Part shown: piece after piece, positions 15,351 through 62,307 of the stretch
How positions within the stretch are numbered: position 1 is the first letter of the stretch
Layout of the letters: each line of letters starts with the position of its first letter
From: Podarcis liolepis
Lineage: Eukaryota
Strand: one strand, 5' to 3'
Length of the DNA: 64,000 bases
Assembly: GCA_965112155.1 (NCBI GenBank)
Contig: OZ218104.1
Notes under the pieces: model-generated
What the model was told of the DNA's origin: nothing
Databases searched by the model: none
What the model saw: only the letters and a program-made list of their open reading frames with translations
Program-made: the position numbers and the translations under genes

Positions 15351-15438
15351 ATGGGCAACTCGTACCACAAGTGGAGCCCCCCAAACGCCAAGGGCTGGTC
15401 TCTCTGGAACTTTGGCCGCTCCGCAGGGCTGAAGACAG
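15351..15438 (+). CDS. NHSL3: NHSL3/KIAA1522 alternative first coding exon 1a (MGNSYHKWSPPNAKGWSLWNFGRSAGLKT|G)
   Basis: Strong Kozak (caccATGg), 88 nt ending in a phase-1 donor AG|gtac compatible with shared exon 2; resembles the MGNSHHK...FWRFGRSA isoform N-terminus recalled for mammalian KIAA1522. Confidence 0.8.
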
Positions 15439-16919
15439 GTACGGGCTTGTCAGGTGGGGAGCCTGTGGGAGGCCTGGCAGGGAGGGTGTCGCTGGGGAGT
15501 TGCCGTGGGGCAGCCACTTTGGGGAAGGGACCGAAAGGGGCAAATATCCTCCTGACTTACCCCTGCCCCTGCCCAAATCTCCAGAGTACAAAACTCCTCC
15601 GTGGGCCCTTAACTTCCAGGTTCATCCCTCCTCAAAGTGGCAGATACGGTGGGGGCGGACTCTGGCTTTTCTCAGGTATGAGGGGAACCTAACCTGGCAT
15701 GTGCTCAGAGGCATTCCTGCCGTCACATGCTACAGAGCAGCTTCCTGTGGCTGCTGGGAGTTGTAGTCCAAAACACTGAGCTGTGGCCTAGCTATGAAGT
15801 CAGATTCTAGGGTTGAATTGGAGCTCTCATTGCTCCGGCAGTTCTGAAATCTGAGGTCCAGAGATGCTCTCCTACACCTGGCTCTTTACCCTGTTGTCCC
15901 AGAGTTCCTGGCGCCTCTTGCTTGGGGACCCAGCTAGGAAATTGCAGCTGGGAAATACACTTCACCATTGCAAGATCCTCACGTCAAAATGCTAGGGAGA
16001 CGGTCTCCCGGTTTCATTGAAAAAGCAATTTGTGAAGGTGTTCTACAGTCCTGAAGGAACCGAATCTGAAATTAAACCAGGGCTCAGTTTTTATTTTATT
16101 TATCACAAGATCTGCATAACACTTGTCCGTTGGCAGATTTGTAAGGCAGCTACGAAAGCACCAGAAAAGATCCAGCAGTAATTTTAAAAAATGATGAATG
16201 TAACAATCGTGCATTTGCAAACACACGTGTCATATAGGAACACTGAACAGAGAACCAGGTTGGGCTGTGGCTTTTGGTTTGATTGTGCATTGAATGGCAA
16301 ACTTTGGGTTGTTGCTGTGCTTTCTCCTTGTTGTTGGAGCTCCTTTGCTGTTTCAAAAGAGCTGCTTCCCTGCCATGTTCTGAGAAACCTGGGGCCTGTC
16401 CTTGGGCCATCTCTGTGTTGCAACCAGCCCTGAGGCTGCTTTGTGGGTTTCTAGGGCTGGTGCTTTGCTAATATAATCACCCCACAGAGAAGATCACTCC
16501 CCTGGAATCAGCCTAACTAATGTGGGCCTAACTAAGGACTGTTCTTCTGTAGAGTCACTGGCCTGGATTAGAATATCCTCCCCATCCATTAGGAAAAAAT
16601 CAGAAGGCCAGGGAAACGCAAGCTCTTCCTCTTGCTTAAAATCTTTTAGAGCCTTCCACCCTTTTACTACTTGGTGTGTGAATGCCATCCTCAAAACGAA
16701 GGTTGCCAACTGTTTTTCCAGCTTACAGGTATTAGCAGAATAGAAAGCTTATCTCCATGTTGTGAAGAGCTCAGTCTATAGGTTTCTGCAGATTATTCTG
16801 ATATTAAAGGCAAAGGAGCAGGTCTCCCCCACCCCACCCAGGTCAGCTTGTAACCCCAATATCCACCTTCTCATTCACACCCAATATTACCAGCCGGTAT
16901 CTGAAGGCCATTGTACAAA

Positions 16920-23800: not shown

Positions 23801-24744
23801 TGTTAATCCTCTTTCATTTAGAGGGGGTGTGTGTGTGTGCAGAAGGAACTTCTTTTTTTCATCTAAGCCAGTTTCCAGAATGAGAAGAGAGGTGTGCAGT
23901 TTGAGAGGAAGAGTCCCAGCTGATGGGCAGCAGAATAGCACCTGCTTGGCAGGTAAAATGTCCCAAGGTGCTTGGCAGGTAAAATGTCCCAGTGGCATCT
24001 CCGGTCAAAAGGGTAGCAAGGCTGGGGAAGGCAGTTCCTGTTATTGTTTGTTGCTGTTGTTGTTAATTTCTTTACTTGCCCTTCACCAGCAGGTCCTAGG
24101 GCAGGTCATAGCCATTTAAAAGTCAGAATTAAAAACAATTAAAACAAATTGCAGCCACTGGAAGAGGGTGGGCCCTGAAAACATACACCTCACATGTCAA
24201 AGGACAGGGTGAAAACAGTGCATCTTTGGCATTCCCCGAAAGCTGCCGTCTGCACCTACCTCTGTGGGGAGGAGGAGGGTTCCATTAAGGGGCTGATAGC
24301 TGAGGTAGAGCCAGCCCTTCTGCAACACAGTGCCCTCCATATATTTTGGACTATAACTCCCATCAGCACCTGCCAGCACAGCTGTGTCATCCAAGGCATA
24401 AATTGTGCATGCCAGTTGCCAGGGGCACCAGGTTGGCAAAGGCTGAGTACTGAGCTAAATGCCGTAGTGGGCTGACTCAACACAGGGTGCCTCCATGTGG
24501 CAGAATTGTACCCCATTGCCCTATTTGTGACGTTGTAAGGGATCCTAGGGCGCCTGTACCTTATAGATTCTGCTCCGCTCCAATAACACTCAAACAGAGC
24601 TATTACCAAAGCATCAGTTGTGTTCTAGGCTTTTTGTTCCTTGGGACTCTTGCATATCTAGTTTAGGAGAGGCAGTTGGGATGCAGCCCCTTCCCGTAGC
24701 TCCCTGAGTGATGTGTGGTCTGAATGTGATTTCTATCGGTCTAT

Positions 24745-24753
24745 GTCTGTCTG

Positions 24754-24803
<50 letters not shown>

Positions 24804-24820
24804 AGCTATCTATCTATCTG
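24745..24820. repeat. (TCTG)/(TCTA)n microsatellite
   Basis: Directly visible. Confidence 0.95.
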
Positions 24821-24850
24821 GAATTTGCCATATATACATACATATATATA

Positions 24851-25099
24851 CCGTATTTTTTGCTCTATAAGACTCACTTTTTCTCTCCTAAAAAGTAAGG
24901 GGAAATGTTTGTGCATCTTATGGAGCGAATGTAGGCTGAGCAGCTATCACAGAAGCCAGAACAGCAAGAGGGATTGCTGCTTTCACTGCGCAGCGATCCC
25001 TCTTGCTGTTCTGGCTTCTGAGATTCAGAATAATTTTTTTCTTGTTTTCCTCCTCCAAAAACTAGGTGCGTCTTGTGGTCTGGTGCGTCTTATAGAGTG

Positions 25100-25109
<10 letters not shown>
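24851..25109. mobile_element. Tc1/mariner-superfamily (Tc2/pogo-like) MITE with internal hairpin
   Basis: TIRs ccgtattttttgctctataagactcac / gtgcgtcttatagagtgaaaaatactg, preceded by TA; internal 31-bp inverted repeat 24950-25020. Confidence 0.75.

Positions 25110-25154
<45 letters not shown>
25108..25154. repeat. (TG)n(TA)n microsatellite, left flank of the PLE insertion
   Basis: Directly visible; (TA)n resumes at 29311-29330. Confidence 0.95.
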
Positions 25155-26170
25155 GCTTTCGTAGATTTTCACGGGTACAGGAATGCAGGTTTTGGTGTCT
25201 TCGGGTGTCTTCCCGTGTAAGAGTTGGGGTGTCTAGGCGACGTTTCGACGAGGTCTCACTCGTCATCTTCAGGCTGGTGCTTTCGGCTTCTTGTTACTGG
25301 AACAGAGCAGGATCTCAGTGTTTGAGTTCCTATAAATACTGTTGAGGGGGTGTGGTGTATAGCCTCCAACGTTCTGGGCAGAGAGGAAGTTCCCAGGTTA
25401 GTGTGCCTATTCTTCTTTTGTTCCTTAATTACTTGAGGGATATCTTGGTTGATTTCTTGAGTGATATTCTGAGTACCACTTAGGTGGGTCATTAAGTGTG
25501 GAGTAGTTGCTAAAGCTTTCGTGTCTTGACCTCTTGAGCTTGTGAAGAGTTTTTCTGAGAAGATGGCTGTACTGCACTTAGTTGTGCTCTGGCTTGGCTT
25601 CGTGTATAGGGGCGAGCTGTGGTTTTGTGCCCTGTGCCAGCCAGATCTGTGTAGGGATTGCAGGGGGGTGCAGCATCCGGAGGTGCCACTATGGTTTGGC
25701 TACTGGATGGTGTCTGTAATTTATCTGTGGAGAGGGTCTGGGTTTGGGTCTGGTGTGGTTGATTGGTGATGGCGTTCTGTGTGCCTCTGGTTCTGGTGTC
25801 GGTTTTTGTGGGGAGGGCTAATTTCCAGATGTCTGGCAGGCGGGACGTGTCGTCACGCTTGTTCATGTTGTGAGGGTGTTTCTCTATCTCGATGGCTTCC
25901 ATGATTATTCTCTTGTGGTGATGTTCCATGTTAAAGAGCAATTTGGAATCTGCAAAATTAATTTCGTGTCCTGTTTCTTTCATGTGTTGGAAAAGAGAGG
26001 AAGTTTTTTCTTCTTTTTTGACGGCATTCTTGTGTTCTGCGATACGTGCATTTATTCGTCTGTTTGTTTGTCCAATGTACGTGGCTGGGCAGACTTTGCA
26101 GGGTATTTCATAGACCCCTTGGTTTTCCAACTGGATTTTATCTTTGGGGTTTCTGAGGATATTGGCTATT
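25155..26170 (-). repeat. Inverted 5'-truncated PLE copy (endonuclease region, 3' UTR, pLTR and ~28-nt tail)
   Basis: Reverse complement of 28325-29312 (paired coordinates sum to 54495 at both ends, so no net indel), extended by sequence equal to 26349-26376; ORF 25510..26181 reproduces the C-terminus of the main ORF. Confidence 0.95.
25239..25272 (-). ncRNA. Minimal hammerhead ribozyme motif in inverted pLTR
   Basis: CUGAAGA-U-GACGAG-ugagac-CUCGUC-GAAA-CGUC on the minus strand. Confidence 0.75.
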
Positions 26171-26348
26171 ATACACCACACCCCCTCAACAGTATTTATA
26201 GGAACTCAAACACTGAGATCCTGCTCTGTTCCAGTAACAAGAAGCCGAAAGCACCAGCCTGAAGATGACGAGTGAGACCTTGTCGAAACGTCGCCTAGAC
26301 ACCCCAACTCTTACACGGGAAGACACCCGAAGACACCAAAACCTGCAT
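26170..26348 (+). repeat. PLE 5' pseudo-LTR (direct repeat of 29134-29312)
   Basis: Identical to the 3' repeat except one C>T seen at 26281; period 2964 bp. Confidence 0.9.
26259..26292 (+). ncRNA. Minimal hammerhead ribozyme motif in 5' pLTR
   Basis: CUGAAGA-U-GACGAG-ugagac-CUUGUC-GAAA-CGUC; stem II kept with one G.U; palindromic ACGU in place of stem III; predicted cut after 26292. Confidence 0.72.
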
Positions 26349-28985
26349 TCCTGTACCCGTGAAAATCTACGAAAGCAAATATCTCACCTCTACGGGGAGG
26401 AAACCTTCCAGCTGACAAGAACCTACGAGAAACTAGAAATCCGAAGAGCCACCATCTTATGTGATCTCTTGTTCCTACGCAACTGCCGAGACAACAACTT
26501 AATTCCCACATGCTTCCAACTTAAATTCCACTCTAAAACCCCAGCTACCGAAAGGATCCTGAAACGAACTGAACTATCCCTAATCAGAAACGAAATACAT
26601 AAGAAAAGATACCTACTAAACCAAACCAACAAAGATCTGCTCACTCTTCACCTCAAACTCTGTAACAAAATCCACCCTGCACTCTGGGACAAATGCAAAC
26701 AACTAGCCGTCTGGAGAGCTGAAACTGAGACCTCACATAAGACAGACAGACACACCAACAAACTCCACAAACTAGAGAAACGCCAGAAGCCCAGCCACCC
26801 TCCACAACAACCCATGAAACAAACAGTACATAACATATCAGACAGGATCCTCACCTCAACTGAAACCAAAGTACTCTCCAAAGGTTTCAACTTTGCAGTC
26901 GCCCCGAGACGCATCCCCACGGAAAACATCATATGCGGAGTCGAAGCTAGCCTAACCAAAATCAACCCAGATGAAGCCAATAAAATCAGACTTGAAGTCA
27001 CCAACATCCTCTGCTCCAGCAAACCACCCAGAAGCAATTTACACAAAGAAGAACAGAAAGCACTCACCAACCTGAGGAAAGACAACAACATAATCATTCT
27101 CCCAGCAGACAAAGGTAATGCCACTGTTGTGATGAACACATCGGACTACCAAGCAAAACTATCAAATCTACTCCAAGACCCTACCTACCAACCTATAAAA
27201 ACAGATCCCACCACCTATCTGGAAAAAACCACCAAATCCAAAATAAAAGCCTCTCCTATCAGTGAAGAAATCCAGCTAAGAATCATCCCCAGAGAAAAAT
27301 CATCCAGATGCCCCAAACTCTACGGTCTCCCCAAGATACACAAAGAAGGAACACCACTCAGACCAATAGTCAGCTCCATAGGCTCACCTCTACAAAATCT
27401 CGCTAAATTTCTCGCTAAGCAACTTCAGCCCTATGCAGAATCCATCGCTTCACACGTTACTAACTCCTTCCAGTTCATAGAAACAATAAAGAAGCAAAAC
27501 CTACATCCCGATGACCTACTTGTGAGCTTCGATGTTGTATCTCTCTTCACACAAGTGCCCATTAATGAAGCCTTGACAGCCATTCAAAACAAATACAATC
27601 CCCCCGAATACATCCTGGACCTGACCAACCACTGCCTAACCAACACGTACTTCATCCACAATGGACAAAGATACAAACAGATAGAAGGAGCACCTATGGG
27701 ATCACCCCTCTCACCGGTCATCGCAAATTTGTACATGGAACACTTTGAAACCAATGCTTTAGACAAGTCAGAACACAAACCCAAACTTTGGCTCAGATAT
27801 GTTGACGACACCTTTGTAATTTGGCCACACGGGAAAGAAAAACTAGATAGCTTCCTCACACATCTCAACAGCCTACACCCCAAAATACAATTCACTATGG
27901 AAATAGAAGCCAACAACCAACTTCCCTTCCTTGACGTCCTAATCTACAAAAAACCTGATGGCTCCCTAGGACACACTATCTACCGGAAAAAAACACACAC
28001 CAACCGCTACTTACATGCACAATCACACCACCACCCTGCACAAATAAACTCCGTAGCCAAGACTCTCATCTCCAGAACCAAACGCCTGGCTGACAAAGAC
28101 CACTTGACAACTGAGTTACAGAATCTCTCAAATGTGTTAATCGCCAATGGATACCAGCAAAACAGGGTTACGAAGCTAATCCAAAAAGAAACACCCCCCA
28201 AAAACCAAGACACAGAAGAAAACAATGGCATGGCCCTCCTTCCTTATATCAAGGGCACTACAGACAAAATTAGCAAAATCCTCCATAAACACAATATCAA
28301 AACAGCCTTTTGCACCAACCAAAAAATAGCCAATATCCTCAGAAACCCCAAAGATAAAATCCAGTTGGAAAACCAAGGGGTCTATGAAATACCCTGCAAA
28401 GTCTGCCCAGCCACGTACATTGGACAAACAAACAGACGAATAAATGCACGTATCGCAGAACACAAGAATGCCGTCAAAAAAGAAGAAAAAACTTCCTCTC
28501 TTTTCCAACACATGAAAGAAACAGGACACGAAATTAATTTTGCAGATTCCAAATTGCTCTTTAACATGGAACATCACCACAAGAGAATAATCATGGAAGC
28601 CATCGAGATAGAGAAACACCCTCACAACATGAACAAGCGTGACGACACGTCCCGCCTGCCAGACATCTGGAAATTAGCCCTCCCCACAAAAACCGACACC
28701 AGAACCAGAGGCACACAGAACGCCATCACCAATCAACCACACCAGACCCAAACCCAGACCCTCTCCACAGATAAATTACAGACACCATCCAGTAGCCAAA
28801 CCATAGTGGCACCTCCGGATGCTGCACCCCCCTGCAATCCCTACACAGATCTGGCTGGCACAGGGCACAAAACCACAGCTCGCCCCTATACACGAAGCCA
28901 AGCCAGAGCACAACTAAGTGCAGTACAGCCATCTTCTCAGAAAAACTCTTCACAAGCTCAAGAGGTCAAGACACGAAAGCTTTAG
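26265..28985 (+). CDS. PLE reverse transcriptase + GIY-YIG endonuclease polyprotein (906 aa)
   Basis: N-terminal LLFLRNC..NLIP block, ILPADKGNATVV, LYGLPKIHK, PLRPIVS, SFDVVSLFT, GAPMGSPLSP, RYVDDTF, LPFLDV; endonuclease GVYEIPCKVCPATYIGQT...RIAEH...HMKETGH...EAIEI...N; no Cys-rich RT-EN linker (unlike Neptune); no stops or frameshifts. Confidence 0.95.
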   Translation: MTSETLSKRRLDTPTLTREDTRRHQNLHSCTRENLRKQISHLYGEETFQLTRTYEKLEIRRATILCDLLFLRNCRDNNLIPTCFQLKFHSKTPATERILKRTELSLIRNEIHKKRYLLNQTNKDLLTLHLKLCNKIHPALWDKCKQLAVWRAETETSHKTDRHTNKLHKLEKRQKPSHPPQQPMKQTVHNISDRILTSTETKVLSKGFNFAVAPRRIPTENIICGVEASLTKINPDEANKIRLEVTNILCSSKPPRSNLHKEEQKALTNLRKDNNIIILPADKGNATVVMNTSDYQAKLSNLLQDPTYQPIKTDPTTYLEKTTKSKIKASPISEEIQLRIIPREKSSRCPKLYGLPKIHKEGTPLRPIVSSIGSPLQNLAKFLAKQLQPYAESIASHVTNSFQFIETIKKQNLHPDDLLVSFDVVSLFTQVPINEALTAIQNKYNPPEYILDLTNHCLTNTYFIHNGQRYKQIEGAPMGSPLSPVIANLYMEHFETNALDKSEHKPKLWLRYVDDTFVIWPHGKEKLDSFLTHLNSLHPKIQFTMEIEANNQLPFLDVLIYKKPDGSLGHTIYRKKTHTNRYLHAQSHHHPAQINSVAKTLISRTKRLADKDHLTTELQNLSNVLIANGYQQNRVTKLIQKETPPKNQDTEENNGMALLPYIKGTTDKISKILHKHNIKTAFCTNQKIANILRNPKDKIQLENQGVYEIPCKVCPATYIGQTNRRINARIAEHKNAVKKEEKTSSLFQHMKETGHEINFADSKLLFNMEHHHKRIIMEAIEIEKHPHNMNKRDDTSRLPDIWKLALPTKTDTRTRGTQNAITNQPHQTQTQTLSTDKLQTPSSSQTIVAPPDAAPPCNPYTDLAGTGHKTTARPYTRSQARAQLSAVQPSSQKNSSQAQEVKTRKL

Positions 28986-29133
28986 CAACTACTCCACACT
29001 TAATGACCCACCTAAGTGGTACTCAGAATATCACTCAAGAAATCAACCAAGATATCCCTCAAGTAATTAAGGAACAAAAGAAGAATAGGCACACTAACCT
29101 GGGAACTTCCTCTCTGCCCAGAACGTTGGAGGC

Positions 29134-29312
29134 TATACACCACACCCCCTCAACAGTATTTATAGGAACTCAAACACTGAGATCCTGCTCTGTTCCAGTA
29201 ACAAGAAGCCGAAAGCACCAGCCTGAAGATGACGAGTGAGACCTCGTCGAAACGTCGCCTAGACACCCCAACTCTTACACGGGAAGACACCCGAAGACAC
29301 CAAAACCTGCAT
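29134..29312 (+). repeat. PLE 3' pseudo-LTR
   Basis: Direct repeat of 26170-26348, ending in (TA)n. Confidence 0.9.
29223..29256 (+). ncRNA. Minimal hammerhead ribozyme motif in 3' pLTR
   Basis: CUGAAGA-U-GACGAG-ugagac-CUCGUC-GAAA-CGUC with perfect 6-bp stem II; stem I is weak (about 2 clear bp). Confidence 0.75.
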
Positions 29313-32237
29313 ATATATATATATATATATTCATTATATATTCAAAATATATTATTTTTTTGTTGTAGTTTAATCCTGAATATATCCAAGAGCAACCAAA
29401 CTGGTGACCTCCAGTTCCCATCCGTCCAGCAGTACCATGCAGGGACTGATGGGAATTGTAGTCCAAAACACCTGGAAAGCCTCCGGTTGAGGAAGGCTGC
29501 ACAAGAGCATTTCTTTGAGTTTTGCTGTGAACACGATACACTGCCCATGGAAATCCCACAGCAGAGTGTGATTTAGCTGTGAATCCTAAACTGGAGAGGA
29601 TTGCACTCAATAACCCTTTGGGTCTCTTCCAACTCAACAGTTCCATTATTAAATTTCTATACTGCCCTTCATCTGAGGATTACAGGGCGGTTTACAATAG
29701 AGAAACACAAAAATGCATACCATAATAATAGACAAAAAGCATACCCCCCGCCAGTATTGTTGTTTATTTAATTTCTATGATTCTGTGACTCCCTGGTAGG
29801 GAAAGGAGATCACTTGTCCTGCCTGAAATTGAGCTTGTGTGGCATGGGAAGACCAAGAAGGGACTGAGACATCTTTTCCCTCTCAGATGGTGACCTCTGC
29901 TTCCCATCTGCCTAGGAAATATCATCTGGCCCTGGGCTGCTGCATGAATAGGCTCAGTTCCTGCAGCAGGAAGAGTTCCACATGCTGTGTTGCTCCTGGG
30001 GTTCCTTCTCCTTGGATGCCACCCTTCTGCGGCCTAGCCTGCCTTCTCAAGTGGCCTCGCATCATGAAAGCAGGCGGGCAGGCAGGCAGGCAGGCAGGCA
30101 ACCTCCTGCCTTTTGCTGTCTCTCCGGCTCTTCCTGTTCAGCCTGGGAAGTCTGCGTTTAGACATAAACCTGTTTGGTAGCTTTTCTAAGAATGGAGGGG
30201 AAGGCAGGGAGGCAGACGGGCTGACCCAGGGAGGAGCAGGGGGTGATGATGTGGCAGGCTGCCATGCAGCTGCTAATGCTATAGTGCCCAGCTCTCCTTT
30301 AGCCAAGGCCCAAAAGCACATTCTGCCTGAACTCTCCAGGGCAGGGAGATGTGCTGCCCTTGTTGTGCATTGTGGCACAACAAGAAAACCACCCCATTCT
30401 CTGGCTCTCTTTGCAGTCGCAAAGTGCCAGTGCAGTGCCCGTGAGTATGTTTCCTAGTGGTGCCCACAGCCTCCCCCTCTCTGGCTGAAATTAGGCTTGA
30501 AAGAAGCCATTCATTGTAGTCAACAGGGGGGGGGGGTTGTAGTACAAACAGGAGGTTTGTATATATTATGAAACAGAAAGTGATTAAAATAAGTATGCAA
30601 AGTGAATGCCAACAGATAGGAAGGCTGTGGGCTGTGCAGGTACCTGGATGGACAGCTCATTGGATTACTTCTGGGAGAAAGAAAGGCGGGGAAAATTAGT
30701 GTTGTGGTATAAGGAAAGAGGCTGGGCACAAAGCAGGAGGAGAAACCGAGATCAAAGTGGATATAATTATTATATTCCATGGTGCAACCTGCTTGGCTTC
30801 CGTGGGCGCTGAAGCCGTCTACAGAGGTCATCTGAACTTTGCGTCTTCAGGATGTTTGTGGCAATTGTAGCATTTTGGGTGTCATGTGGGAACCTCAGAG
30901 AACCATTCCCCTTTCTTTGCAATGCAGGGACATCCATGCCTCAAAACCAACCCTGGACCTCTTGATGCCATTATTCATAAATCATTTTCTAGAGCACTTT
31001 TTGGCATGCGCGGAAGTCCATAGCTATGATCTCATCTATGCTCAGTTGTCTCCTGCTGGCCGTTTCCTCCTCATTCTTGCTGCTTTCCTCACACATGACG
31101 AATTTGGCCCCGGGAATCTCCTGCTGCTGCTCCAAGCCGGGCCTGAGTTTTGTGATGTATGAAAATTGGAATGTGTTTGGGGAGAGTGACGGAGCTGGGG
31201 TTACAGAGTTCAGGCGGCAACATGCACATTATTCTTCATTTCAGTGACACACACTTCAGCAAATGGGAATGTAAGAAAGAAGCATGTACAAAAAAATTAT
31301 TTATGCCAGTGCTTATTGGAACTAAAGACCTTCCCTTGAACAATCAGGGGTCCGCTTTCATTTGCAGAGGAGCAGCATGTATATGAGGGATGATCTTGCC
31401 ACTTCATGGCCTGTGCCAAACCCTCTGGACAAGGGCTTCATAGTGTTGTTCACATGCAGGGTACAGAATGGAGAGGAAATAATAAACTATAACTGAAGTA
31501 AGAGCAGAGAAAATGAGGTGGGAGGGCCAACAAGAGCGATCTTTTTGGTGCAAGAAAGAAAGTGATCAGGAACTCTGAATTATATGGGTGGGTAACACAT
31601 GTCCCTACCCTGATAGTGAATTTTACTGAACGCAGTGGGATTTTCCACTGGAATGGTGGTTGCATGTGTGTGAGCTTTTTCTGTAGGACAATGTTGACTT
31701 CGGGACACCAATTGGCAATGTCAAACAGCTGGCTGGATCACACTTGCATGTCTTGTTACATGACAACCACAACATTGCATGTTTGGGATTTTTTTTAGTT
31801 TAATTTAGTTTCTCTTTAGAGAAGAGGTGAGTAAGAGGTGACACGGAGAAAGTGAGTAGAGGAAAGTTTTCCTCCCTGTCCAATAACACTAGAACTCATG
31901 GACATCCAGAAATGACTGGCTCATCTTTTTAAAACGATTAAATAGGCCTGTTAGCATAAAAAGGCCTCCCAAGAGATGCCTGAAAGTTCACAGTGAGGAT
32001 GTTTTATAGTGCAACCCCTAGTGTGGCTGTGCCATATCATCAATAGTCCAAAGTGCACTTGCTTTTCTGTATTGCTCCCTCTCCCCCAGAACGCAGGACA
32101 CAAAGTGCTCCACATCCATTCTCTCAGTAACAGCCTTGCAAGGGTGTCTAGTACTGCTGGGGCTGTAACTTCAGTGGTGTGGCCTGAAAGGCCTTGTTGA
32201 TTATGATTGCCTCTGGATGCAAAGTGGTGTCACTGTA

Positions 32238-35195: not shown

Positions 35196-35229
<34 letters not shown>
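35196..35229. repeat. (TA)n microsatellite
   Basis: Directly visible. Confidence 0.95.
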
Positions 35230-38259: not shown

Positions 38260-39350
38260 TTTCCCGAGTGCTCGCGCAGCCTCAAGCTAAAGCAGTTTTG
38301 AATGGGGTACCCTGGGAGGAGGGAATTGGGCCTGCATGACCCGGCCCTGAGCCTGGAGGGTCCGCGTCCCTTCCTGCCGCCCAGATATTGCGGGGGGAGG
38401 GGCTGAGAAGCGGAGAAGTCCCCCCCGCCCGCCCCTTCCATTGTTGCCCGCGCCGCCTTCTGAGGACCCCGACGGCGCTGGCGGCGGCGGCGGCAGCAGC
38501 AGGAGCGGCGCTCTCTCTCCTTCGGCGCCCAAACCCTCCCGGGGCGAAGCGGCGGCAGCGGCTGCGCTGGTCCCGCCCCGGCGAGGGAGGCGGCCGACGA
38601 GGGATGCTGAAGGAGAAAGGGACGAAGAGGCGCCTCGCCTCACCGTCGAGGGTTGGCTGAAGAGGACGCCGCCGGAGCAGCTGCAGCAGCCGCCCGGAGC
38701 GGGCCGGGCCGGGGGTCGGGATGGTGGTCTTCCTCGGGAGGAACCTCCCGTCGCTGCTGAAGCTCTTCAAGAAGAAGGGTGAGCCGGGGCGCGGCCGGGG
38801 CAGGGAGGCGTCCCGCCGGCGGGCTGGGCACCGGGGAGGGAAGCGAGCGAGCCCGAGACCCCCACCCTCCTCAGTCTTCGTGAACTTCTTCGGGGTCTGC
38901 AGCCGAGCGCAGGATCGGGCTTGCCCGGGGATTTCCCATTAAGCCCCCGGCCCTCACCCCCGCGCAAGGGTGTGTAGATATACTCGAGAGTAAGTCTCAC
39001 CACCATCCGCTGCGTGCGCGCGCGCGCGCTTAGGATCGCAGCCCTGCAGTGCAATCCTTACGGGTCTACTCGGAAGTAAGCCCCACGCGCTCCTTTGGAG
39101 TGGGGGGTAAACTCGGGGAGGCGGCTGACTTGGGGGTGCAGCTGAAAGACCGGAAACTCTGGGCGGCGGAGCTTGCCCTTTGTCACCGTCGGGATGTTCG
39201 GCCTGGGGTTGGCTTTGCAAAGGGGGCTTGTGTCTATGGAGCTTCGGGGAGGGGGCCGGGGGGAGGTATGTGCCACCCGAGGCCCCTCTGCACGGCGTCC
39301 TTGGGATCCGCTGCCTGCGTCTGCCCCAGCCAGCGGTGGGGAATCTGCGT
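38260..39350 (+). promoter_or_regulatory. NHSL3: CpG island promoter of NHSL3 exon 1b
   Basis: Abrupt rise in GC and CpG density, GC boxes (ccccgcccgcccc), surrounds the first coding exon. Confidence 0.85.
38721..38778 (+). CDS. NHSL3: NHSL3/KIAA1522 first coding exon 1b (MVVFLGRNLPSLLKLFKKK|G)
   Basis: Matches the recalled KIAA1522 N-terminus [20 protein letters not shown]; Kozak gggATGg; phase-1 donor G|gtgag. Confidence 0.92.
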
Positions 39351-45714: not shown

Positions 45715-46026
<312 letters not shown>

Positions 46027-46062
46027 TAGGCCATTTTGTCTCTGAGCCCTCTGAGCTCTCAC

Positions 46063-46188
46063 AGAATCATAGAGTTGGAAGGGACCACAAGGGTCGTCTT
46101 ATTCAACCTCTTGCAGTGCAGAAATCATTGGCCCAACGTGAGGCTCAGAGCCATGAGATTAAGAGTCTCATGCTCTACTGATTGAGCC
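46063..46188 (-). mobile_element. tRNA-Lys-head/CR1-tail SINE (Squam2-like)
   Basis: Reverse complement gctcaatcagtagagcatgagactcttaatctca...cacgttgggc resembles tRNA-Lys(CTT), followed by CR1 tail ending ctatgattct. Confidence 0.75.
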
Positions 46189-47423
46189 ATTTGCTCTGTT
46201 TTCCTTTCATAATACTCTTGGCACAAAACCTCCCTGGCCCAGGGTCCTCTGGGTGGGGAGCAGTTGTTTCTTTGCTCTCTGTTGTCACTTGGGATGCTAA
46301 ACTATAGCATCAGCCCTCCCTCACGGTAAATGGTACTCCTGTTCAGAACAGCCTGGGACTGGGCTCTTGCGAAACCACAGCTTAGTTCGGTCAGAAACAA
46401 GTAGCTGTGTTGGCCTGATAGGAGAAAAACTGCAGAGACAGTTAAAATTGTGCCTGGCTCAAAATGCAGCATGCAAACTGTAGGGCAGGGTCACCGATGT
46501 GGTGGCCACTAGGTGTTGCTAGACTACAAATCCCATCATCCCTCAATATTGACCATGCACAGAACTCTACCACAGGCAGTGTGTGTGTTTGTTTTGTGGG
46601 GTGGAATACAAGGGGAAAATATAAGAAATCTCTTAACACAGATACCTCCCCCCCTTTTTAATTAAATACAAACTAGCAACCATTTGGTCTAATGTGTAAC
46701 TTGAAAGTTTGAGTGGTGCAGAATAGCTTTGTGTGGGCTTCTCAAAATGGATCAGCATCCTGTCCCAGCTGAATCTGAATCAAGCTTTGTGCCCTGAGCT
46801 GATTTATAGGGTCTGGGTTTAGGCCTGGAATTTGCCACCAAAAAAGCAACCACCTCTGTGTACATGCAAAGTACATTTCTGATTTCCGTAACTGCTAAAG
46901 AACTGCACCCTCCATGAGCACACCTGAGCCAATGGGAAGAGGTCCCTCTGCTCCAGGCATGGTACATCATGTTTAGAACTGTGGCTGTGAGGAGTCCCAT
47001 CTGCCTCCTTATACTACTGGGTGGGGTTCTTCCCTCTGCCCCTGATTGTGGTTCTGCCCACGCTGGAGTTCAAACAGCACCTGCCAAGCATGGAAAGGCG
47101 GTTGCAGCTGCGCAGTGCCGGATGGGCAGGTTGCCGTCTCAGAGCAGAGTCCAGTGCCTGTGAGGCCAGTGGCCTGCCTGCCAGGGAGAGCGGCTGCCTG
47201 CTCTCTTCCTCTGAGGCTGGGCTGGGTCATGAGCAGGATCTCCAGGAGGGTTCTTGAGAAGCCCCTTCCCTCCCAGGACAGCAGGAGAGGCAAGCAGGTG
47301 GGAGACTATTCCTTCCTGCGTTCTCTTCTCTGCTCCCCGCTCCCGGCACTCTGGATCAGCGCTTAGTGGCCTCCAGCCCTCCCCGGGCTGGCAGACGATG
47401 TTTTTTCTGCTGTTGCCTTTCAG

Positions 47424-47479
47424 AGAAACACAAGCAGAGCAAGAGGGTCTGGGACCACAGCGACACCAGCAGCATCCAG
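47424..47479 (+). CDS. NHSL3: NHSL3 exon 3 (EKHKQSKRVWDHSDTSSIQ)
   Basis: tttcag| ... |gtaag, 56 nt phase 1-0, matches recalled EKQKLNKGGWDHGDTQSIQ. Confidence 0.93.
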
Positions 47480-49018
47480 GTAAGCCGGTTGCATGTCAGG
47501 CAGCAGCTTGCGTTGCCCTCTTTCCTCCACAACCCCCATGTGCACGTCACACCCTTGCAGTGCCGTTGCATATTTTCCATTGGCCTGTGTTGTGCTAACT
47601 TGCAGCGTCTTCACCACCACACCTGCCACCCTGAGGATAAGATACCCGGGAAGCCTTGGGGTTGTTTTCCCATACCCATCTTCCCTCCGCTGCAAACAGA
47701 AAAGCATTTGTGCTGTGTTCCTCCAGCCGCGGCATCCTCTTTATAAAATGATCCTGATTTTGCACAATATGAGATCAAGAGCTGATCTTGTGCCTTCTTG
47801 AAATTGCCCAGAGGTGGATGAGGGAGTCTGGCAGCTGATGGACCCTGCAGTGGGACCTGGGATCGCTCGGGAAGGTCTTCTTGTGGAAGGAGCCAGCAAA
47901 TGCGGAGCCTCCACCAGCACCGAACTCGGGTGGGGTGAAAGCTGGCCTCTTCTCTTCTGTTTATCTTGGCTGCAACCTGGTGGACTTTGTCCCCAGCACT
48001 TCCCTGCAGCTGCACTTCCCTCCTCCTGGCTGCTGATTCCAGCAAATCCTGCCTTCAGCTCTGCTTTCCTCGCAGATGACCCTTCCTGAAGGGGTCTTTG
48101 CTTCTTGCTCATGTAGCCCTTTTCGAGTTCAGGGAATAAAACTAGACAGGTTAGAAAGAGGAAGCCAGACTTCAGCAGAGAAGACTCTTCTGACCTCTTT
48201 GTTCCTCGTGTTCTAGGTTATGCAGAATAGGTGAGAAACACCTCTCTGTGTGTTGCACAAAGCAGTACCAAATCTGTGATTATTAATCAGCAAAAGCTTT
48301 AAATCTTTTTCTTTTTTAAAAAAGAAACAATGTTCTGGCTGATTGGCAAACCATATTGGAATATCCCTTTTTCTTCTCAAAAATATATTTGGTTGTGCAA
48401 AGGAATTTGAAGCAGCAAACAATCTCCTGCATGTTCTGGCCACTTGAGTGTTCAAGCGGACAGCTGGTGCTAAATTGAAATTCTGTAACCTGACAGTAAA
48501 ACCAACCAACCAACCAAGAAACCGAATTCTGCAATCTGCATGAAGTATGTAAAGCCCCCATTCCTCTGGCTTTTGAGATTTCAGCAGGCTTTCCAGAGCA
48601 CTGTCAAGCATTTCCACACAGCCACAAGGCCTAGAAAATTTAAAAAGGGCACTTGAGACTCTTAGCTTCATGCTGCACCCCGTGCCACATCCTTTGTTTA
48701 CATGGAATGGCAGGGCTTGCGATGTCCTGATCATATAGCTGAGGAATACTGGCTAAGTGGGAAACAAGCACCCAGGCCTTGTCATTGTCGGAGAGCATGC
48801 CTGCTGTTGGAGCTTCACCGACTGTTTTTACAAATGTGCAAAACCAAGGCAACTTCTGATGTGCCCTTTTACACTGATTTCATGGTCCTTTAATCAGAAA
48901 GGAGTTTGTGCCCTTGAAAGCAATGCCAAGGCCGGCCCAATGGCTTGGCTTCTGTCAAGCAGCGCCACCTGGCGGACAGGAAGGATGGTCCTGTCTGCAA
49001 CTTGCTCCCTCGCTCATT

Positions 49019-49165
49019 TCATAGAATCAGAGAACTGTAGAGTTGTAAGGGACCATCAAGGGTCATCTGGTCCAACTCCATGCAATGCAGGAATCTTTTG
49101 CCCAATGTGGGGCTTGAATCCACAGCACTGAGATTAGAAGAGGCTCATGCTTTACTGACTGAGCA
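49019..49165 (-). mobile_element. tRNA-Lys-head/CR1-tail SINE (Squam2-like)
   Basis: Same organisation as 46063-46188. Confidence 0.75.
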
Positions 49166-49504
49166 ATTAATGCTTCTGTTTTTTTATGGAGGCAAGAGGG
49201 GGGCACAGCAGGCAGACTCCTGGGGTCTGCCTCTTCCTTGCCCATGGAAGGATCCTGGATAGGTTGGATGTCCATGCCTGTGAGACCCATCTCTGGGCTC
49301 CAAGGGGGAACCTTCTATTAAGGTTACCAGATTTTTTACAATGAATCTGGGGACACTTTTCAATTTCAATGGATTTTGTATGGGGACTGATTTGTAAATC
49401 CAGGGACTGTCCCTGGGAAATGGGAACCTTACCTTCTATGGGTGAACAGGACTTGGTGGGAAATTTACCCTCTTGCCTTCATTTCCTTCCCTCTCGGCAT
49501 GCAG

Positions 49505-49625
49505 TCTTCCCGCTCATCCACAGAGGGTGACGACCTCTCGGTCCGGAGTCAGACCCCATCATGTGCCACGGAAAGCACCTCCGAGGATGCCCTCTCGGTG
49601 CGCTCAGAGATGATCCAGAGGAAAG
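49505..49625 (+). CDS. NHSL3: NHSL3 exon 4 (SSRSSTEGDD...EDALSVRSEMIQRK)
   Basis: 121 nt phase 0-1, canonical sites, conserved EDALSxRSEMIQRKG. Confidence 0.95.
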
Positions 49626-49773
49626 GTACTACTGCCAGAAGCCTTGGGTTCAGGAGCTGGGCTTGGTGCAGGGAGGGAAACTGCAGCTGTTTTTTCCAGA
49701 GACCACCACAACCCCTCGCAAAAATTCAGAGGGTCTGCTTGAAGGAAGGGTCAAATGCAAAGTTGAGCTGTGA

Positions 49774-50133
<360 letters not shown>

Positions 50134-51078
50134 TGATGGAAACTGGATAAGCATGCATGGACTTAAGTGCACACTTGAGTCTGGCGGTGTAAGCTGGGAA
50201 ACTGCTTTGGCCAAACTTGTGGATTGTTAGGCTTGGCTGGGTTTGGAAAAGTGATTTGTGCACACTTGAGGTGGGATGAGATGTGGGAGCAGGGAGAGGC
50301 TTAGGAAGCTGGATGCTGTTTTGGGGCAGAAGTCTAATGAGAAACACAGATGTCTGGTTAAATATATGCAAAGCATATGCTTTGTACTCTTAACATGCAA
50401 AATGAGTTAAAATATTAAACCTCAGCAGCACAACTATGTGAGTTAGTAACTGCGGGGGTTTGCTTCCAAGGGTTCTGAAAATGTGTATGCTCAAAACACT
50501 TGGAACTGCTCCTGTGTCAGCATCCCTTCCAGAGCCTGTGCGCTGAGCAGGCCTTGACTTCCAAGCAAGGCTAAGAGCTTAAAAGCCCTTCCTGCGCTGT
50601 GAAAATGAGGCACAATAGAGCTTTTAAGCTCTCTGCATTGCATGCATTTAACATGTGCATTTTGAACCGGCCTGCCTTCAACTGTGCAAGGTTTAAATGA
50701 CACACGTTAACTGCGCATAAGATGCCACCATGCTATATTTTGCAAGGTGGAGACTGGAAGTTGAGAGGGAGTTGTCATGTTCCTGGTCATCCACTGAGCT
50801 GATTGCTCACTTGGTGCTGGGACCCTTCCAGCACCAGGACAGACCCTTCCTTTTCCTCCCATTCTCTTCTCCTGGCTGGTGGGACCCAGGAGCTTCAGCA
50901 TGCAGTTTTGGTGTCCAACCGCTGGGACTTCCTTCTCCATCTTATCAGTTACCCAATAAGGTGACTGAGAAGCATTTATGGGACTTGAGAGCACTGAAGT
51001 TCATTTCTTCTGCTTGCGCTATATAGTTTTTTCCCACTGGCCCCTCATTCCTTATTTCCTTTGTATTATCTGCTTCAG

Positions 51079-54000
51079 GCCTGAGCAACGGATATGAGGC
51101 GAAGAAACGCCCGGGCAGCATTGCTGTCCGACCTGATGCGACCTCTCCGGCCCTCTCGAATGGTGGTGAGGTCCACGGCAATGCCATCCACATCCCCACC
51201 GTTGATGGGAAACTACGGCCCACCGTCATCCCCAAGGGCGGTGCCCGCGTCTCCCTGCAGGCCCTGGAGGCCCTGGAGGCCGACACCTCCCTCCAGCGCC
51301 ACATCAACTGCGTCTACTACGACGACTCACTCCTGGGGCGCAAGACGGCGGCGAAGCTGTCCCCCTTGGCCAGGCCCAAGTCTCTGGCTGTGCCCTGGAT
51401 GACCACCCAGCCAGGCTCCCCCGAGCTGCTGGGCCCCGTCATGTCCATCTCTCCGCAGGGCACCTACCTGTCGAAGATCATCCCCAACGCCGTCATGCCT
51501 CCCATGGTGGACGTCATCGCCCTCTCGCGTAACAAGGTGCGCACGCTGAGCCGCTGCAGCCTCTCAACTGCCAGCCCGGCCTCCGTGCGCTCGGTGGGAC
51601 GCTTCCCTTCTGGCCCCCGCAGCCGCGAGCACTCCTCCTCCAGTGACAACTGGAGCCATTCCCAGTCCACAGAAACCATCGTTTCGAACACCTCCACCAT
51701 CTCCTCACACGGGGGAACCGACAGCAGGAAAGGCGAGGCCAGGCCCGATGGACAGGTACAGGGGGCGGCTAGGCCCGACTTGGACCAGCTCAGTACCTTC
51801 AGCTCCATGAGCGGCACCAGCTCAAACTGCCACGGTGGCAAGGCCGCCCCTGCCTCCCCCCACCTCCTTGGGGTGCGGCCCCCCGGAAGCAGCGGGCGGG
51901 CCTCCCCTGCCTACAGCACCGGCAGTGCGGCAGAGGGCTCAGACAGCATGAGCGTGCGGAGCGACCGTTCCTCCACCCGCAGCGTCTCCCTCAGGAAGAT
52001 GAAGAGAGCCCCCGCACCCCCGCGCAGGACGTACTCCCTGCACAAGAAGGCTCAGCAGCTGGAGGCCGAGGGGGCACCCAGAGCAATGGGCCTGCCCCCC
52101 ATGCCAGAGCGCAGGCCCCCACGGGAAGGCAGCGAGGCGTGGGCTGTGGGGCGGCTAGGGAGCCCCAGCCTAACCGGGGACGACGAAGTGTTCTCCCCCT
52201 CCTCGCAGAGCGAGACCAGCAGCCTCCGTTCTGACAGCCTGGCCTGCTCTCCCAACGTCTCTCACCGGAGCCCGACCATCCGAGAGGAGGGGCAAGTGGA
52301 TGAGACGTCGGAGGTCCCCTCGAAGCACAGCTCCCCCGACCACTATGGCCGCACGATGTCGCCCTCCAGCGGGTACTCGAGTCAGAGCGGCACGCCCACC
52401 CTCCACACCAAGGGCCTTGTGGCCCACGCCTCGCCCTCCGGGAAGAAGAGGCCCCAACCAAAGAAGCCGGAGCGGGTCTGCTCCTTGCAATCCCCGGGGC
52501 CCTCCGTCTCCTCCTCCCTGACATCCTTGTCCTCCTCTGCCTCGGATCCAGCCACTGTGGAGGGGACGGCCCCGCATTCAGCAGGACCCTCTGCCAACGC
52601 TGCCCCCGCTCTGAATAAAATGGACAGGTTCCTTATCCCTCCTCACCCCAAGGTGCCAGCTCCTTTCTCCCCTCCACCCACCCAGGGCCAACTGGCGGAA
52701 CCCAAACCTGCCAATGCCCCGGCCCCCACGGGCCAACCTCACCAACAGCCCGCTGTCCTTACGAAAGCTAGTCGCAGGTCGCCTCCTCCGTCTCCCCCTC
52801 CGGCCTACCACCCGCCACCACCCCCAGCGAAGAAGGCCAGTGCCATTCCGGAGGCCCCAGCTGCCCCTACACCTTCTGAGACCGTGCCGGACGCTCCCGC
52901 GGATCCTTTGTGGCCCCCTCCACCCCCACCAGTGCCCGACGCCCATGACCTCTCCATGGCTGACTTTCCTCCCCCGGACGAGGCCTACTTTGTGCCACCC
53001 CTGCCAGAGCCCCAGCTGCAGGCTGTGGGGACACCCTCCCTTCAAGTCACTGTGGCAGCTCCTGCAGAGAAGGAGCAGCCGGCCAACCAAAGAGCAGCCC
53101 TTGCGGAGGAGGGCCAAGTGCTGGCCTCTTCGCCCTCCTTCTCCACAAGAGTGTCCTCCAAGATCCAGCAGCAGGGGGCGCCGGACGCCGCACCACTGCC
53201 AGCTCCTCAAGCAGAGCCGCCGCCACCTCCTAAGTTCCCTGCGGCAGGAGAAACTTCCCTCCACTGGAAGCCCACTGGCCCGGCGGCAACAACCTCCAGC
53301 CTCCAAGCCCAGCCCAGCCTTAAGAAGCCTGCCGCCAGCGCCCACCCCGACCTCAAGAAAGAGCCGGCATCTCGCAGCAAGAGCAACTCCACGCCAAAGG
53401 AGGACGCCAGCCTCCCCATTGTGACCCCTTCCCTGCTGCAGATGGTCCGCCTGCGCTCGGTCCACATGGACACCCACGCCCCTTCTGCGAGCCCAGCGGC
53501 AGCCAACCCCGTGGCGGAGCAGAACGGGCCGAGCACTGGGGTCAGCGGGAAGTTGGGGCAGCCTGCCCCACAGAAGCCTGTCCGCAAGTCGCTCTCCTTG
53601 AGGGCCCCGAAGGACAGCAGCGGTCCATCTTCAAACCCCCTGCACGATGCCGTGCGCCTGAAGGCCTCCACACTGTCTTCCAGAGACGCGCCAGGCCTCA
53701 GAGGGGCTGAGAAGAAGGCTGGCCACCGGCTGACGCTGCCGGCTTTCCCCACCGCAGCAGCTGCTCCCGCCGGCGAGGCGAAAGAGGACCAAGTGTCCCC
53801 CCACCACAAGTCCCCGGCTTCGACGGCCAGCTTCATCTTCGCCAAGAGCCCCAAGAAGCTGGTCATCGACACCTCGGCCTCCCCAGAGGCCCAGGCCAAC
53901 CTGAAAAAGAACCTGGTTGCGGAACTGATGAATGTCTCTGGTCAGCGGTCCACGGCAGCCCTGGGGCTCCCCCAGCAGGGCTCAGGAAAGCCCCAGGCCC

Positions 54001-54228
54001 GGAAGATCCCTCCACCCATAGCCAGGAAGCCCTCGCTAGGGCCAGGCCAGCTGCCGTCTCCCCGGAGCCCCAAGCCAGCAGGAGCTGAGGAGTTGAGCTC
54101 CACCCTGCCAGTGGCTGGGGACAGGACTAAGAGTGAGGGGTCTGGTCACCAGGCCGCTCTCCTTGGGGATAGCAGTGACAGCCCCCCAGCAGGGCCTGCA
54201 ACACCACTACAGAGCCCCCCAGCACAAG
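51079..54228 (+). CDS. NHSL3: NHSL3 large exon 6 (Ser/Pro-rich region)
   Basis: 3150 nt open frame, ttcag| ... G|gtaag, motifs ARVSLQAL, MSISPQGTYLSKIIP, SPSSGYSSQSGTPT, IVTPSLLQMVRLRSV, KSPASTASFIF. Confidence 0.95.
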
Positions 54229-54895
54229 GTAAGGGGCTGAGCAGGGTGGGGATTGAGTGGTCCCGATTCAGCTGTGGCAACACACTTGATATTGGAAGGT
54301 CTGTCCTGGGGGTTGTTGGGCAACTGTTATTGACTGACCACGGTGCTTTATACTCACACCGTTTGACCAATGCAGGCCCTGATTTCTTGCCCTTTTTCTG
54401 CCAGTCATGTTGACTATGTCTCCAGATTCTCCCTGGGCAAGAACAGGAGGGGGTGGGTTGCCATCATGCCCTGCTTGGGGGCTCCTAGTAACAGGAAAAA
54501 GAATGCTATGCTGGAGAATTTTTTAAAAATCTAATTATGTATTTTGTTTTACAGTTGCCCAGTGATGTAAGTGCAGCATTACTGCTGTTTGTTACAGTGT
54601 AATCCTTCTTAAAATATAGTACAATTTCATCTTGCACAGGGGTTATGTTCTGGGGGTGGTGCATATACGTAAAACGACACACCTGGTAGCATTTACCCCC
54701 ACCCCCAAACAAGGCAGAGAGCTTTTAAGTTTTTGTCTCTGGTGTGGATTCTACATAGCTCTCTTGCTTCCTTTCTCCACAGCTGATTAACTGAGGTTGA
54801 GGGAGAGTTGTAGGCTTGGGAGGGGAGGTGCAGTCCCGTCACAAGGCGCTGGATTCCAGCTCTGAAACCCATTGCCTCTGCTTTTCTCCTTGCAG

Positions 54896-58485: not shown

Positions 58486-58521
<36 letters not shown>

Positions 58522-59368
58522 TTATTATTTGTACCCCGCCCATCTGGCTGGGTTTCCCCAGCCACTCTGGGCGGCTTCCACAGAAACCAAAAAACACTAA
58601 AATATCATACATTAAAAGCTTCCCTGAATAGGGCCGCCTTAAGATGTTTTCTGAATGTCAGGTAGTTGTCCATCACCTTGACATCCGATGGGAGGGCATT
58701 CCACAGGGCGGGCGCCACCACCGAAAAGGCCCTCTGCCTGGTTCCCTGTAGCTTCGCTTCTCGCAATGAGGGAACCGCCAGAAGGCCCTCGGCGCTGGAC
58801 CTCAGTGTCCGGGCAGAACGATGGGGGTGAAGACGCTCCTTCAGGTATACTGGGCCGAAGCCGTTTAGGGCTTTAAAGGTCAACACCAACACTTTGAATT
58901 GTGCTCGGAAACGTACTGGGAGCCAATGTAGGTCTTTCAAGACCGGTGTTATGTGGTCTCGGCGGCCGCCCCCAGTCACCAGTCTAGCTGCCGCATTCTG
59001 GATTAGTTGTAGTTTCCGAGTCACCTTCAAAGGTAGCCCCACGTAGAGCGCATTGCAGTAGTCCAAGCGGGAGATAACTAGAGCATGCACCACTCTGGCC
59101 AGACAGTCAGCGGGCAGGTAGGGTCTCAGCCTGCGTACCAGGTGGAGTTGGTAGACAGCTGCCCTGGATACAGAATTGACCTGTGCCTCCATGGACAGCT
59201 GTGAGTCCAAAATGACTCCCAGGCTACGCACCTGGTCCTTCAGGGGCACAGTTACCCCATTCAGGACCAGGGAGTCCTCCACACCAGCCCGCCCCCTGTC
59301 CCCCAAAAACAGTACTTCTGTCTTATCAGGATTCAACTTCAATCCATTAGCCGCCATCCATCCTCCAA
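58486..59368 (-). mobile_element. Young 5'-truncated L2 LINE
   Basis: Uninterrupted RT C-terminus 'WMAANGLKLNPDKTEVL...SRLDYCNALY.GLP...LHWLPV...AFSVVAPALWNALP...FREAF', 3' stem-loop region and trinucleotide (TTA/TAA)n tail. Confidence 0.9.
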
Positions 59369-59451
59369 GACAGGTGTTGATCATAATGTGAGCTGTGCAC
59401 AGGTGGGCTGGAGCGAGCGAGCGAGCTACCACCATTCCTGTGGAGCCTCCT

Positions 59452-59457
59452 TTTATT
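59452..59457 (-). terminator. YARS1: Candidate distal YARS1 polyadenylation signal (AATAAA); proximal candidate at 60325-60330
   Basis: TTTATT on + strand downstream of the YARS1 stop; usage not determinable from sequence. Confidence 0.4.
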
Positions 59458-62119: not shown

Positions 62120-62307
62120 CTGGAAGAAGAGGATAATCATGTTAGCGGCAAGCAGGCTTCAGTCGGCCTCTTGCTTCGCCTAACAGGAAAACATAGCCAA
62201 GGGATAACTAATGCCTGCTTATGCCCCCAGTAAGTGGAACGTTGATCCATTTGCAGCCCCCTCTGCATGAGCCAAAGTCTGCCTGCCCTACTGTCCACTG
62301 CACACAC

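Follow-up and report, generated by a model that had tools for sequence, protein, structure and literature searches.

The stretch analyzed here, 64,000 nucleotides (nt) of Podarcis liolepis (contig OZ218104.1 of GenBank assembly GCA_965112155.1; hereafter the window), was found to carry an insertion of a Penelope-like element (PLE). An inverted, 5'-truncated part lies head-to-head with a forward part longer than one unit, and the sequence features place the element among the PLEs with endonuclease (EN), in the Penelope/Poseidon clade. On balance we favor the reading that this is a recent Penelope/Poseidon copy whose head-to-head layout arose as it inserted, with priming on either side of a single break. 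The locus is a textbook Penelope/Poseidon insertion and not a new kind of system; what it adds are ends at positions +84 and +113 of the open reading frame (ORF) that bracket the tail, a lacertid-snake family apart from the Anolis Poseidon, and a possible C-terminal frameshift. No other PLE remnant was detected in the 64-kb window, so that the element stands there as a single copy. The insertion is composed as follows.

25154-29312 (no strand): whole insertion, an inverted 5'-truncated copy head-to-head with a longer-than-unit forward copy; at either end, the last 1-2 nt could be target.
25154-26170 (minus strand): inverted arm with EN region, 3' untranslated region (UTR), pseudo-long terminal repeat (pLTR) and tail; equal to 28325-29312 plus the 29-nt tail, with its outer end at ORF +112/113.
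25154-25182 (minus strand): 29-nt tail, at the left end only, equal to 26349-26377.
26170-29312 (plus strand): forward arm of 3,143 nt, i.e. a 2,964-nt unit plus 179 nt; 5' end at ATG -95, 3' end at ORF +84 of the next unit.
26170-26377 (plus strand): truncated 5' pLTR with tail sequence, overlapping the ORF start.
29134-29312 (plus strand): 3' pLTR without tail, holding hammerhead core copy 2 (29223-29256) and the next-unit ATG (29229).
26164-26172: inversion junction, with 1 shared nt at 26170 and a 6-nt microhomology (GGCTAT) offset by a 3-nt duplication.
25108-25153 (no strand): left target, (TG)12 then (TA)11, the (TA)n part being 25132-25153.
29311-29330 (no strand): right target, (AT)10.

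Positions 25183-26170 are the reverse complement of 28325-29312, identical at 988/988 positions with no mismatch and no indel. An earlier interpretation made from the letters alone (the sequence-only reading) had reported a duplicated segment of about 990 bp without net indel and a single substitution among the three pLTR copies, and both observations held. The copies at 26170-26377, at 29134-29312 and on the minus strand at 25361-25154 differ solely by a T at 26281 versus a C at 29245 and 25250. The unit length of 2,964 nt follows from the direct repetition of 26170-26348 at 29134-29312. Both host junctions are 3' ends of the element, at +84 on the right and +112/113 on the left, and each ends in GCA followed by (TA)n. 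As both outer ends adjoin (TA)n tracts, a target-site duplication is unreadable. An artefact of assembly or of chimeric reads as the source of the inverted arm would fit the 100% identity over 988 nt, and such structures are known to trouble assemblers (PMC8557442). It is nevertheless extremely improbable, since the arms are separated by 2,154 nt, have different, biologically expected ends that both lie in TA tracts, and stand in a window with 0 N.

Each of the three pLTR copies holds a hammerhead core with an extra nucleotide after A9, a 6-bp stem II, a palindromic minimal helix III and a weak stem I of 2 bp. Comparison with PMC4209133 and PMC11167929 points to a putative hammerhead in each. 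The two cores outside the 3' pLTR are located as follows.

26259-26292 (plus strand): copy 1 of the minimal hammerhead core; stem II has the ATG at its base, the cut is predicted after +28, position 26281 carries the C>T change, and stem I is 2 bp long.
25239-25272 (minus strand): hammerhead core copy 3, in the inverted arm.

An Rfam search of 24000-30500 at E<=5 returned no hammerhead; its nine matches were all microRNA-like hairpins below the gathering score, none of them inside the element body. Folding of the hammerhead and reverse transcriptase (RT) start regions was in no case out of six better than that of shuffled sequences (z -0.93 to 0.15). The forward arm holds two hammerheads one unit apart; two are reported to be required (bioRxiv 10.64898/2026.07.22.740005), and a circular template has been proposed for PLEs (PMC4209133). 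That this arm exceeds one unit fits either a tandem transcript or a circular template.

The closest biochemical comparison is the Poseidon_Ac (PAc) protein of Anolis carolinensis, which has been purified and shown to carry out target-primed reverse transcription in vitro (PMC11167929). In AT-rich DNA, this anole protein cuts both strands and extends them; inside the RNA, its RT has one start at +111 to +118 and a second one elsewhere, the tail being the stretch between the two (PMC11167929). P0021, a PAc-like protein whose N terminus matches the published anole template translation but for one residue (by eye), is one codon off the window ORF, so that the published +111 to +118 corresponds to +108 to +115 in this copy, and the left end lies at +112/113. 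By analogy, this position at a published RT start site suggests priming from both sides of one break. In the main text of PMC11167929 the word 'inverted' is used only of a blocking nucleotide; the link from two-strand priming to an inverted layout is thus our own. Inverted repeats of varying size are frequent in Penelope-transformed flies, according to a figure legend in PMC2377424. The formation of tandem and inverted PLE insertions has been named an open question (PMC8557442), and the steps after priming were left unvalidated in PMC11167929.

The insertion could have proceeded in five steps. The RT-EN protein, probably dimeric according to structure prediction, would have bound an RNA longer than one unit, from tandem read-through or a hammerhead-cut circle. 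The EN would then have cut both strands in the (TA)n tract; the target is observed, and the two-strand cutting is that of the anole protein. The right 3'-OH would have primed inside the RNA at ORF +84 and been extended over 3,143 nt, past one unit, rebuilding a short 5' pLTR, while the left 3'-OH would have primed at +113 and been extended over about 1,016 nt; ends and lengths are observed, and it is the two priming events that we infer. The two complementary DNA (cDNA) ends would have joined near the 6-nt microhomology of the observed junction, with the second strands filled in by a presumed route. The one CpG deamination, itself observed, would have come afterwards. If true, two-sided priming would account at once for the inverted PLE architecture and for the presence of the tail on one side.

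Several points weigh against this account. A single locus cannot separate two priming events from the fold-back of one cDNA, which is the main rival, and identical arms require the same RNA or the same source locus. Since the microhomology is offset by 3 nt, plain annealing does not yield the exact junction; 9 of 2,700 alternative truncation points score at least 6, on a scoring devised after the junction was seen, which makes the chance estimate post hoc. The match of +84 to the second anole RT start, by analogy, rests on the tail length. The hammerhead stem I has 2 bp, and the stem-loop around the right end and the hammerhead regions gave z values of -0.78, 0.15 and -0.33 against shuffles. 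With fold-back, a single priming event would be followed by the cDNA folding back, or switching to an antisense template, at the microhomology and copying its own start, the EN trimming the tail on one side. This would explain the 988/988 identity automatically and predicts the same junction; self-priming has been proposed in PMC3846280 and EN-mediated tail resolution in PMC8557442. However, no palindrome was found at the inversion junction (26164-26172), unlike the rotifer cases, the inverted arm has 29 nt missing from the end of the forward arm and thus requires an extra trimming step, and the anole protein extends both cut strands directly (PMC11167929). We therefore consider fold-back rather unlikely. 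A young family with clean ends permits a count-based test of two-sided priming against it.

In L1 twin priming, two primers arise from one break, both use one RNA, and the inversion is joined at a microhomology. One L1 junction is then an element 3' end, whereas here both are, and the inverted part duplicates the 3' region. Alternatively, the inverted composite might have pre-existed at a parent locus and been copied as one unit, in which case the arm identity would date the parent and not the insertion. There are rotifer cases of host sequence moved between pLTRs (PMC3846280), yet both ends here look like RT starts and lie in TA tracts, and the published inverted arms differ in size among copies (PMC2377424), which leaves a composite parent improbable.

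A recent date is supported by the identical arms and by the pLTRs, and the sequence-only reading was upheld on this point. The sole pLTR change is TCG to TTG, a CpG transition at 26281 and the only one in 2,212 nt compared; it turns a stem II G-C pair into a retained G.U pair and codon 6 from Ser to Leu. The T is taken as derived because the Crotalus relative has Ser at codon 6. If the change postdates the insertion, divergence is 4.5e-4 (95% interval 1e-5 to 2.5e-3), and the estimated age is then about 0.1-0.45 million years (Myr), at most about 2.5 Myr, at neutral rates of 1-5e-9 per site per year. The observed/expected CpG ratio was 0.51 in the element versus 0.22 and 0.18 in the flanks. 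The arm identity could have been inflated, and the age biased young, by gene conversion or assembly polishing, a further point against our account, and the change at 26281 could instead be an RT error or parental inheritance. Inverted repeats can undergo gene conversion, and an older, fixed insertion of a family no longer active, its arms homogenized in this way, would also fit the 14 of 656 amino acids (aa) at which the P. muralis relative differs, which gives the family some depth. We regard this as very improbable: the unduplicated 2.15 kb is also free of stops, the 5' pLTR differs by 1 nt only, and CpG is still undepleted. The insertion may plausibly be polymorphic in the population.

The 906-codon uninterrupted ORF with YVDD and GIY-YIG residues described by the sequence-only reading was recovered from its ATG (26265) to its TAG (28983-28985), with no internal stop.

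26265-28985 (plus strand): ORF of 906 aa, with N-terminal helical domain, RT, thumb, GIY-YIG EN and a disordered tail (aa 810-906).
26316-26786 (plus strand): N-terminal long-helix domain, aa 18-174, with a predicted homodimer interface at aa 83-113.
27336-27872 (plus strand): RT core, Pfam RVT_1 at aa 358-536 (E 2.8e-15), with D423 and YVDD at 512-515.
28377-28634 (plus strand): GIY-YIG endonuclease, aa 705-790, with C711, C714, H749 and H755, from a Pfam match and invariant columns.
28796-29239 (plus strand): second open frame through the 3' UTR into the pLTR, which the Podarcis muralis relative enters after aa 897.

A DKG motif (aa 282-284) lies just upstream of the RT core. The Pfam match to GIY-YIG (aa 705-744) had E 0.0011 and 19.6 bits, below the cut-off of 22.6. 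In a 20-row alignment 17 EN columns were invariant, including the catalytic set (G705, Y707, Y718, G720, R729, H733, E778 and N790, each in 20/20 rows) and the CCHH residues (C711, C714, H749, H755). The structure model had a mean predicted local distance difference test (pLDDT) score of 84, with aa 810-906 mostly disordered. Foldseek on this predicted structure ranked TERT first to third (best E 1.8e-10) and L1 ORF2p, not far below, fourth, and a sequence search of the PDB gave four distant RTs and no PLE structure. Dimer prediction for aa 25-270 scored 0.50 versus 0.00 for the best of three controls, with 100% run agreement and a pLDDT of 66. The score mark was reached by 21/30 solved homodimers and 0/23 monomers in a microbial calibration, and among eukaryotes by 17/29 pairs (animals 7/16; 1/7 of those without an older solved relative) and 0/30 single chains. 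The prediction thus supports, short of showing, homodimer binding of aa 25-270. From its sequence, the window copy probably encodes a working protein, which would be a second reptile PLE protein for biochemistry, 45% identical to PAc.

The second frame stays open over the 243 nt from the stop to the next ATG; in shuffles, this was seen in 0.8% for one given frame and in 2.5% when any frame was counted. Since the P. muralis model crosses into it beyond aa 897, a 1-nt indel is implied, and the family ORF could be about 991 aa long. The 906-codon ORF may therefore be a slightly shortened form that arose by a far C-terminal frameshift. A basic [TL]RS motif occurs in 22/46 relatives' tails of at least 60 aa and is kept in the 906-aa form; as the difference lies in the disordered tail, after this motif common in relatives, 906 versus about 991 aa probably matters little. 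The idea that the ORF reads through into the hammerhead throughout the family found no support: 3/117 motif-bearing matches were flagged (acidic end), none convincing. In P0007, an unflagged and unnamed match, the tail ends in a hammerhead-like translation by eye.

The Penelope-like identity given by the sequence-only reading was confirmed by RVT_1, the TERT-like fold, the C-terminal GIY-YIG with CCHH and the hammerhead cores. The single ORF with a telomerase-related RT, the GIY-YIG with R, H, E and N, and the direct and inverted pLTRs are features of PLEs with EN. The 29-nt tail, at one end, is 1 nt under the quoted 30-40 nt of the optional PLE tail. A C-terminal EN with CCHH and no linker zinc finger indicates Penelope/Poseidon (PMC8557442), and no CX2-5CxxC finger was found between RT and EN, where aa 600-704 hold one Cys (683). 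Rather than on a tree that includes reference clades, the clade placement is based on domain, motif and hammerhead features together with the 45% identity to a PAc-like protein. Neptune and Nematis were rejected as the linker zinc-finger motif was not found, and Naiad and Chlamys, with an N-terminal EN and no hammerhead, because the window EN is C-terminal and hammerhead cores are present. Membership in the Poseidon_Ac family was also rejected, given the 45% identity and the rejection of one clade (AU, approximately unbiased test, p=0.00046).

With PAc (PMC11167929) the window copy shares the domain order, a hammerhead stem II with the ATG at its base, a similar predicted hammerhead cut (25 nt after the ATG codon in the window copy versus 26 nt), the AT-rich target, an element end at the homologous RT start site and a predicted N-terminal helical dimer. 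The dimer interface predicted here (aa 83-113) lies inside the 27-173 predicted for the anole protein (PMC11167929). The window ORF is 45% identical to P0021 over 773 aa. The window copy and PAc differ in stem I (2 bp in the window copy versus 3 bp, by eye), the EN (C-x2-C versus C-x-C) and the stretch after the EAIEI motif (124 aa versus 58 aa).

The sequence-only reading had called tandem or inverted pLTRs with a short tail PLE hallmarks, and the inverted partial-tandem layout is indeed the commonest published Penelope form (PMC2377424, PMC8557442). In Drosophila virilis Penelope, as in the window, a truncated copy stands before a full one, inverted repeats that vary in size frame them, and there is a short terminal tail (PMC2377424); the 2-bp hammerhead helix I is shared as well (PMC4209133). 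The tail measures 29 nt here versus 34-37 nt in D. virilis, and the upstream pLTR part is only 95 nt long, unlike in D. virilis Penelope. The compared rows did not include the D. virilis protein.

Homologue searches covered the best 120 of 1,482 and the best 120 of 1,273 matches. P. muralis LOC144326219 was 98% identical (642/656 aa). Among the matches listed, amino acid identity was 83% for Vipera latastei, 75-89% for Crotalus (C. adamanteus, C. tigris), 77% for Ahaetulla prasina, 54-67% for the chrysomelid beetles Diabrotica and Leptinotarsa, 46% for the beetle Cylas (P0103) and 45-51% for Anolis; Diabrotica, Leptinotarsa and Cylas were the nearest named non-squamate relatives. Crotalus P0122 begins at the same Met as the window ORF. 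The lacertid-snake relatives are partial or chimeric gene models, whereas the copy in the window has its full length and its flanking structure intact. In the RT region lacertid-snake identity was mostly 81-91%, with one Vipera window at 72% where the gene model diverges. Full-coverage snake NHSL3 matches gave 57-63%, a weak control for the RT identity as the exon is low-complexity and fast-evolving. A. prasina P0123, named P2Y purinoceptor 1 isoform X3, is a fragment of the window PLE family (77% over aa 478-791), i.e. a mis-annotation or an exonized insertion.

Trees were built from named records, with 55/59 rows (4 dropped for <200 filled columns) and then with hand-picked sets of 34 and 23. 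Several snake rows fill less than half of the columns, and transposable element proteins enter these databases only by mis-annotation. The lacertid-snake rows formed a 100/100 clade nested in a beetle clade (96/88 in the 34-row and 99/98 in the 23-row tree), and the Anolis rows grouped with other beetles (99/98; 98/97). A single squamate clade of the window family plus Anolis was rejected in the 23-row set (AU p=0.00046); the tested group was named after earlier trees were seen and is still the natural vertical null. The RT phylogeny put forward as a check by the sequence-only reading was thus obtained for the lacertid-snake clade, inside the beetles and separate from Anolis, but not for the reference clades, as the trees contain search matches only, with no Neptune, Nematis, Naiad or Hydra reference rows. 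C. tigris P0156 and P0158 took separate positions within the squamate clade, P0156 (89%) being nearer the lacertid copy than other snakes; this weakly hints at more than one subfamily or transfer, the rows barely overlapping.

Horizontal transfer among lacertids, snakes and beetles is a candidate explanation of these sequence relationships, one whose chances seem evenly balanced and whose direction is not shown. The lacertid-beetle path is about 0.8 changes per site, and with such long separating branches any transfer would be old and without a visible direction. Old paralogy with losses could instead have given the pattern. In a titles-level literature listing, with subscription papers outside it, no paper on a lacertid-snake PLE family was found, and the available part of PMC6050309 held nothing on Penelope transfer. 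The lacertid-snake-beetle pattern is a testable horizontal-transfer candidate. A wider proposal joins all of this: a second squamate Poseidon lineage, separately acquired from an insect-type ancestor, would have passed horizontally between lacertids and advanced snakes and still be jumping in lacertids, and the window copy would record a dimer priming both sides of a break at two tail boundaries. We put this forward tentatively and hold it somewhat doubtful as a whole.

As to whether the window copy could itself be a source element, its ORF and catalytic residues are intact, its layout is that of the active Drosophila form (PMC2377424), and read-through transcription from NHSL3 is possible given its position. 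Against a source role, only 95 of the 243 nt between the stop and the next ATG precede its ATG, the 3' pLTR reaches no further than ORF +84, short of the +172 to which the template had to extend for the anole protein in vitro (PMC11167929), and the 988-bp hairpin likely invites silencing. A titles-level literature listing turned up no cell-based assay of a vertebrate PLE. A TATA-like box readable both ways lies at 26192-26199, at about ATG -70, and also in the other two pLTRs. The antisense box of the inverted arm faces the forward ORF, and the head-to-head layout might, speculatively, supply an upstream promoter.

The amniote host named by the sequence-only reading could be narrowed to a lacertid from a large exon (51078-54227) of NHSL3 (KIAA1522), which is 95% identical to the Lacerta agilis cluster representative and at most 76% to other reptiles. 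NHSL3 occupies 15351-15446, 38721-38780 and 45796-54251, with two alternative first coding exons (15351, 38721); from 45796 onward the exons are shared. For the isoforms starting upstream at 15351, the insert thus lies in an intron, and its ORF is sense to NHSL3. The N terminus of Lacerta NHSL3 isoform X1 had no match in the window and probably sits upstream of it. In pre-mRNAs from the upstream first exon the perfect 988-bp inverted repeat could form double-stranded RNA.

An empty (AT)17 tract at 35196-35229 is the only other TA tract of at least 10 nt in the window and a potential target. A miniature inverted-repeat transposable element (MITE) of 258 bp (24851-25108), presumably TcMar/Tc2-like, carries terminal inverted repeats that are imperfect and about 27 nt long, and ends at the microsatellite struck by the PLE; its internal 35-bp hairpin (24946-25024) is 94% complementary, with weak microRNA-like Rfam scores. 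On the minus strand, an exon at 62208-62675 is convergent with NHSL3, and its translation resembles what we take to be the C-terminal domain of the tyrosyl-tRNA synthetase YARS1. Also on the minus strand, a 312-codon stop-free 3' fragment (58605-59543) lies beside an (AAT)12 tract (58486-58521). It had no convincing Pfam match, looks to us like a long interspersed nuclear element ORF, presumably of L2/CR1 type, and is possibly another young insertion.

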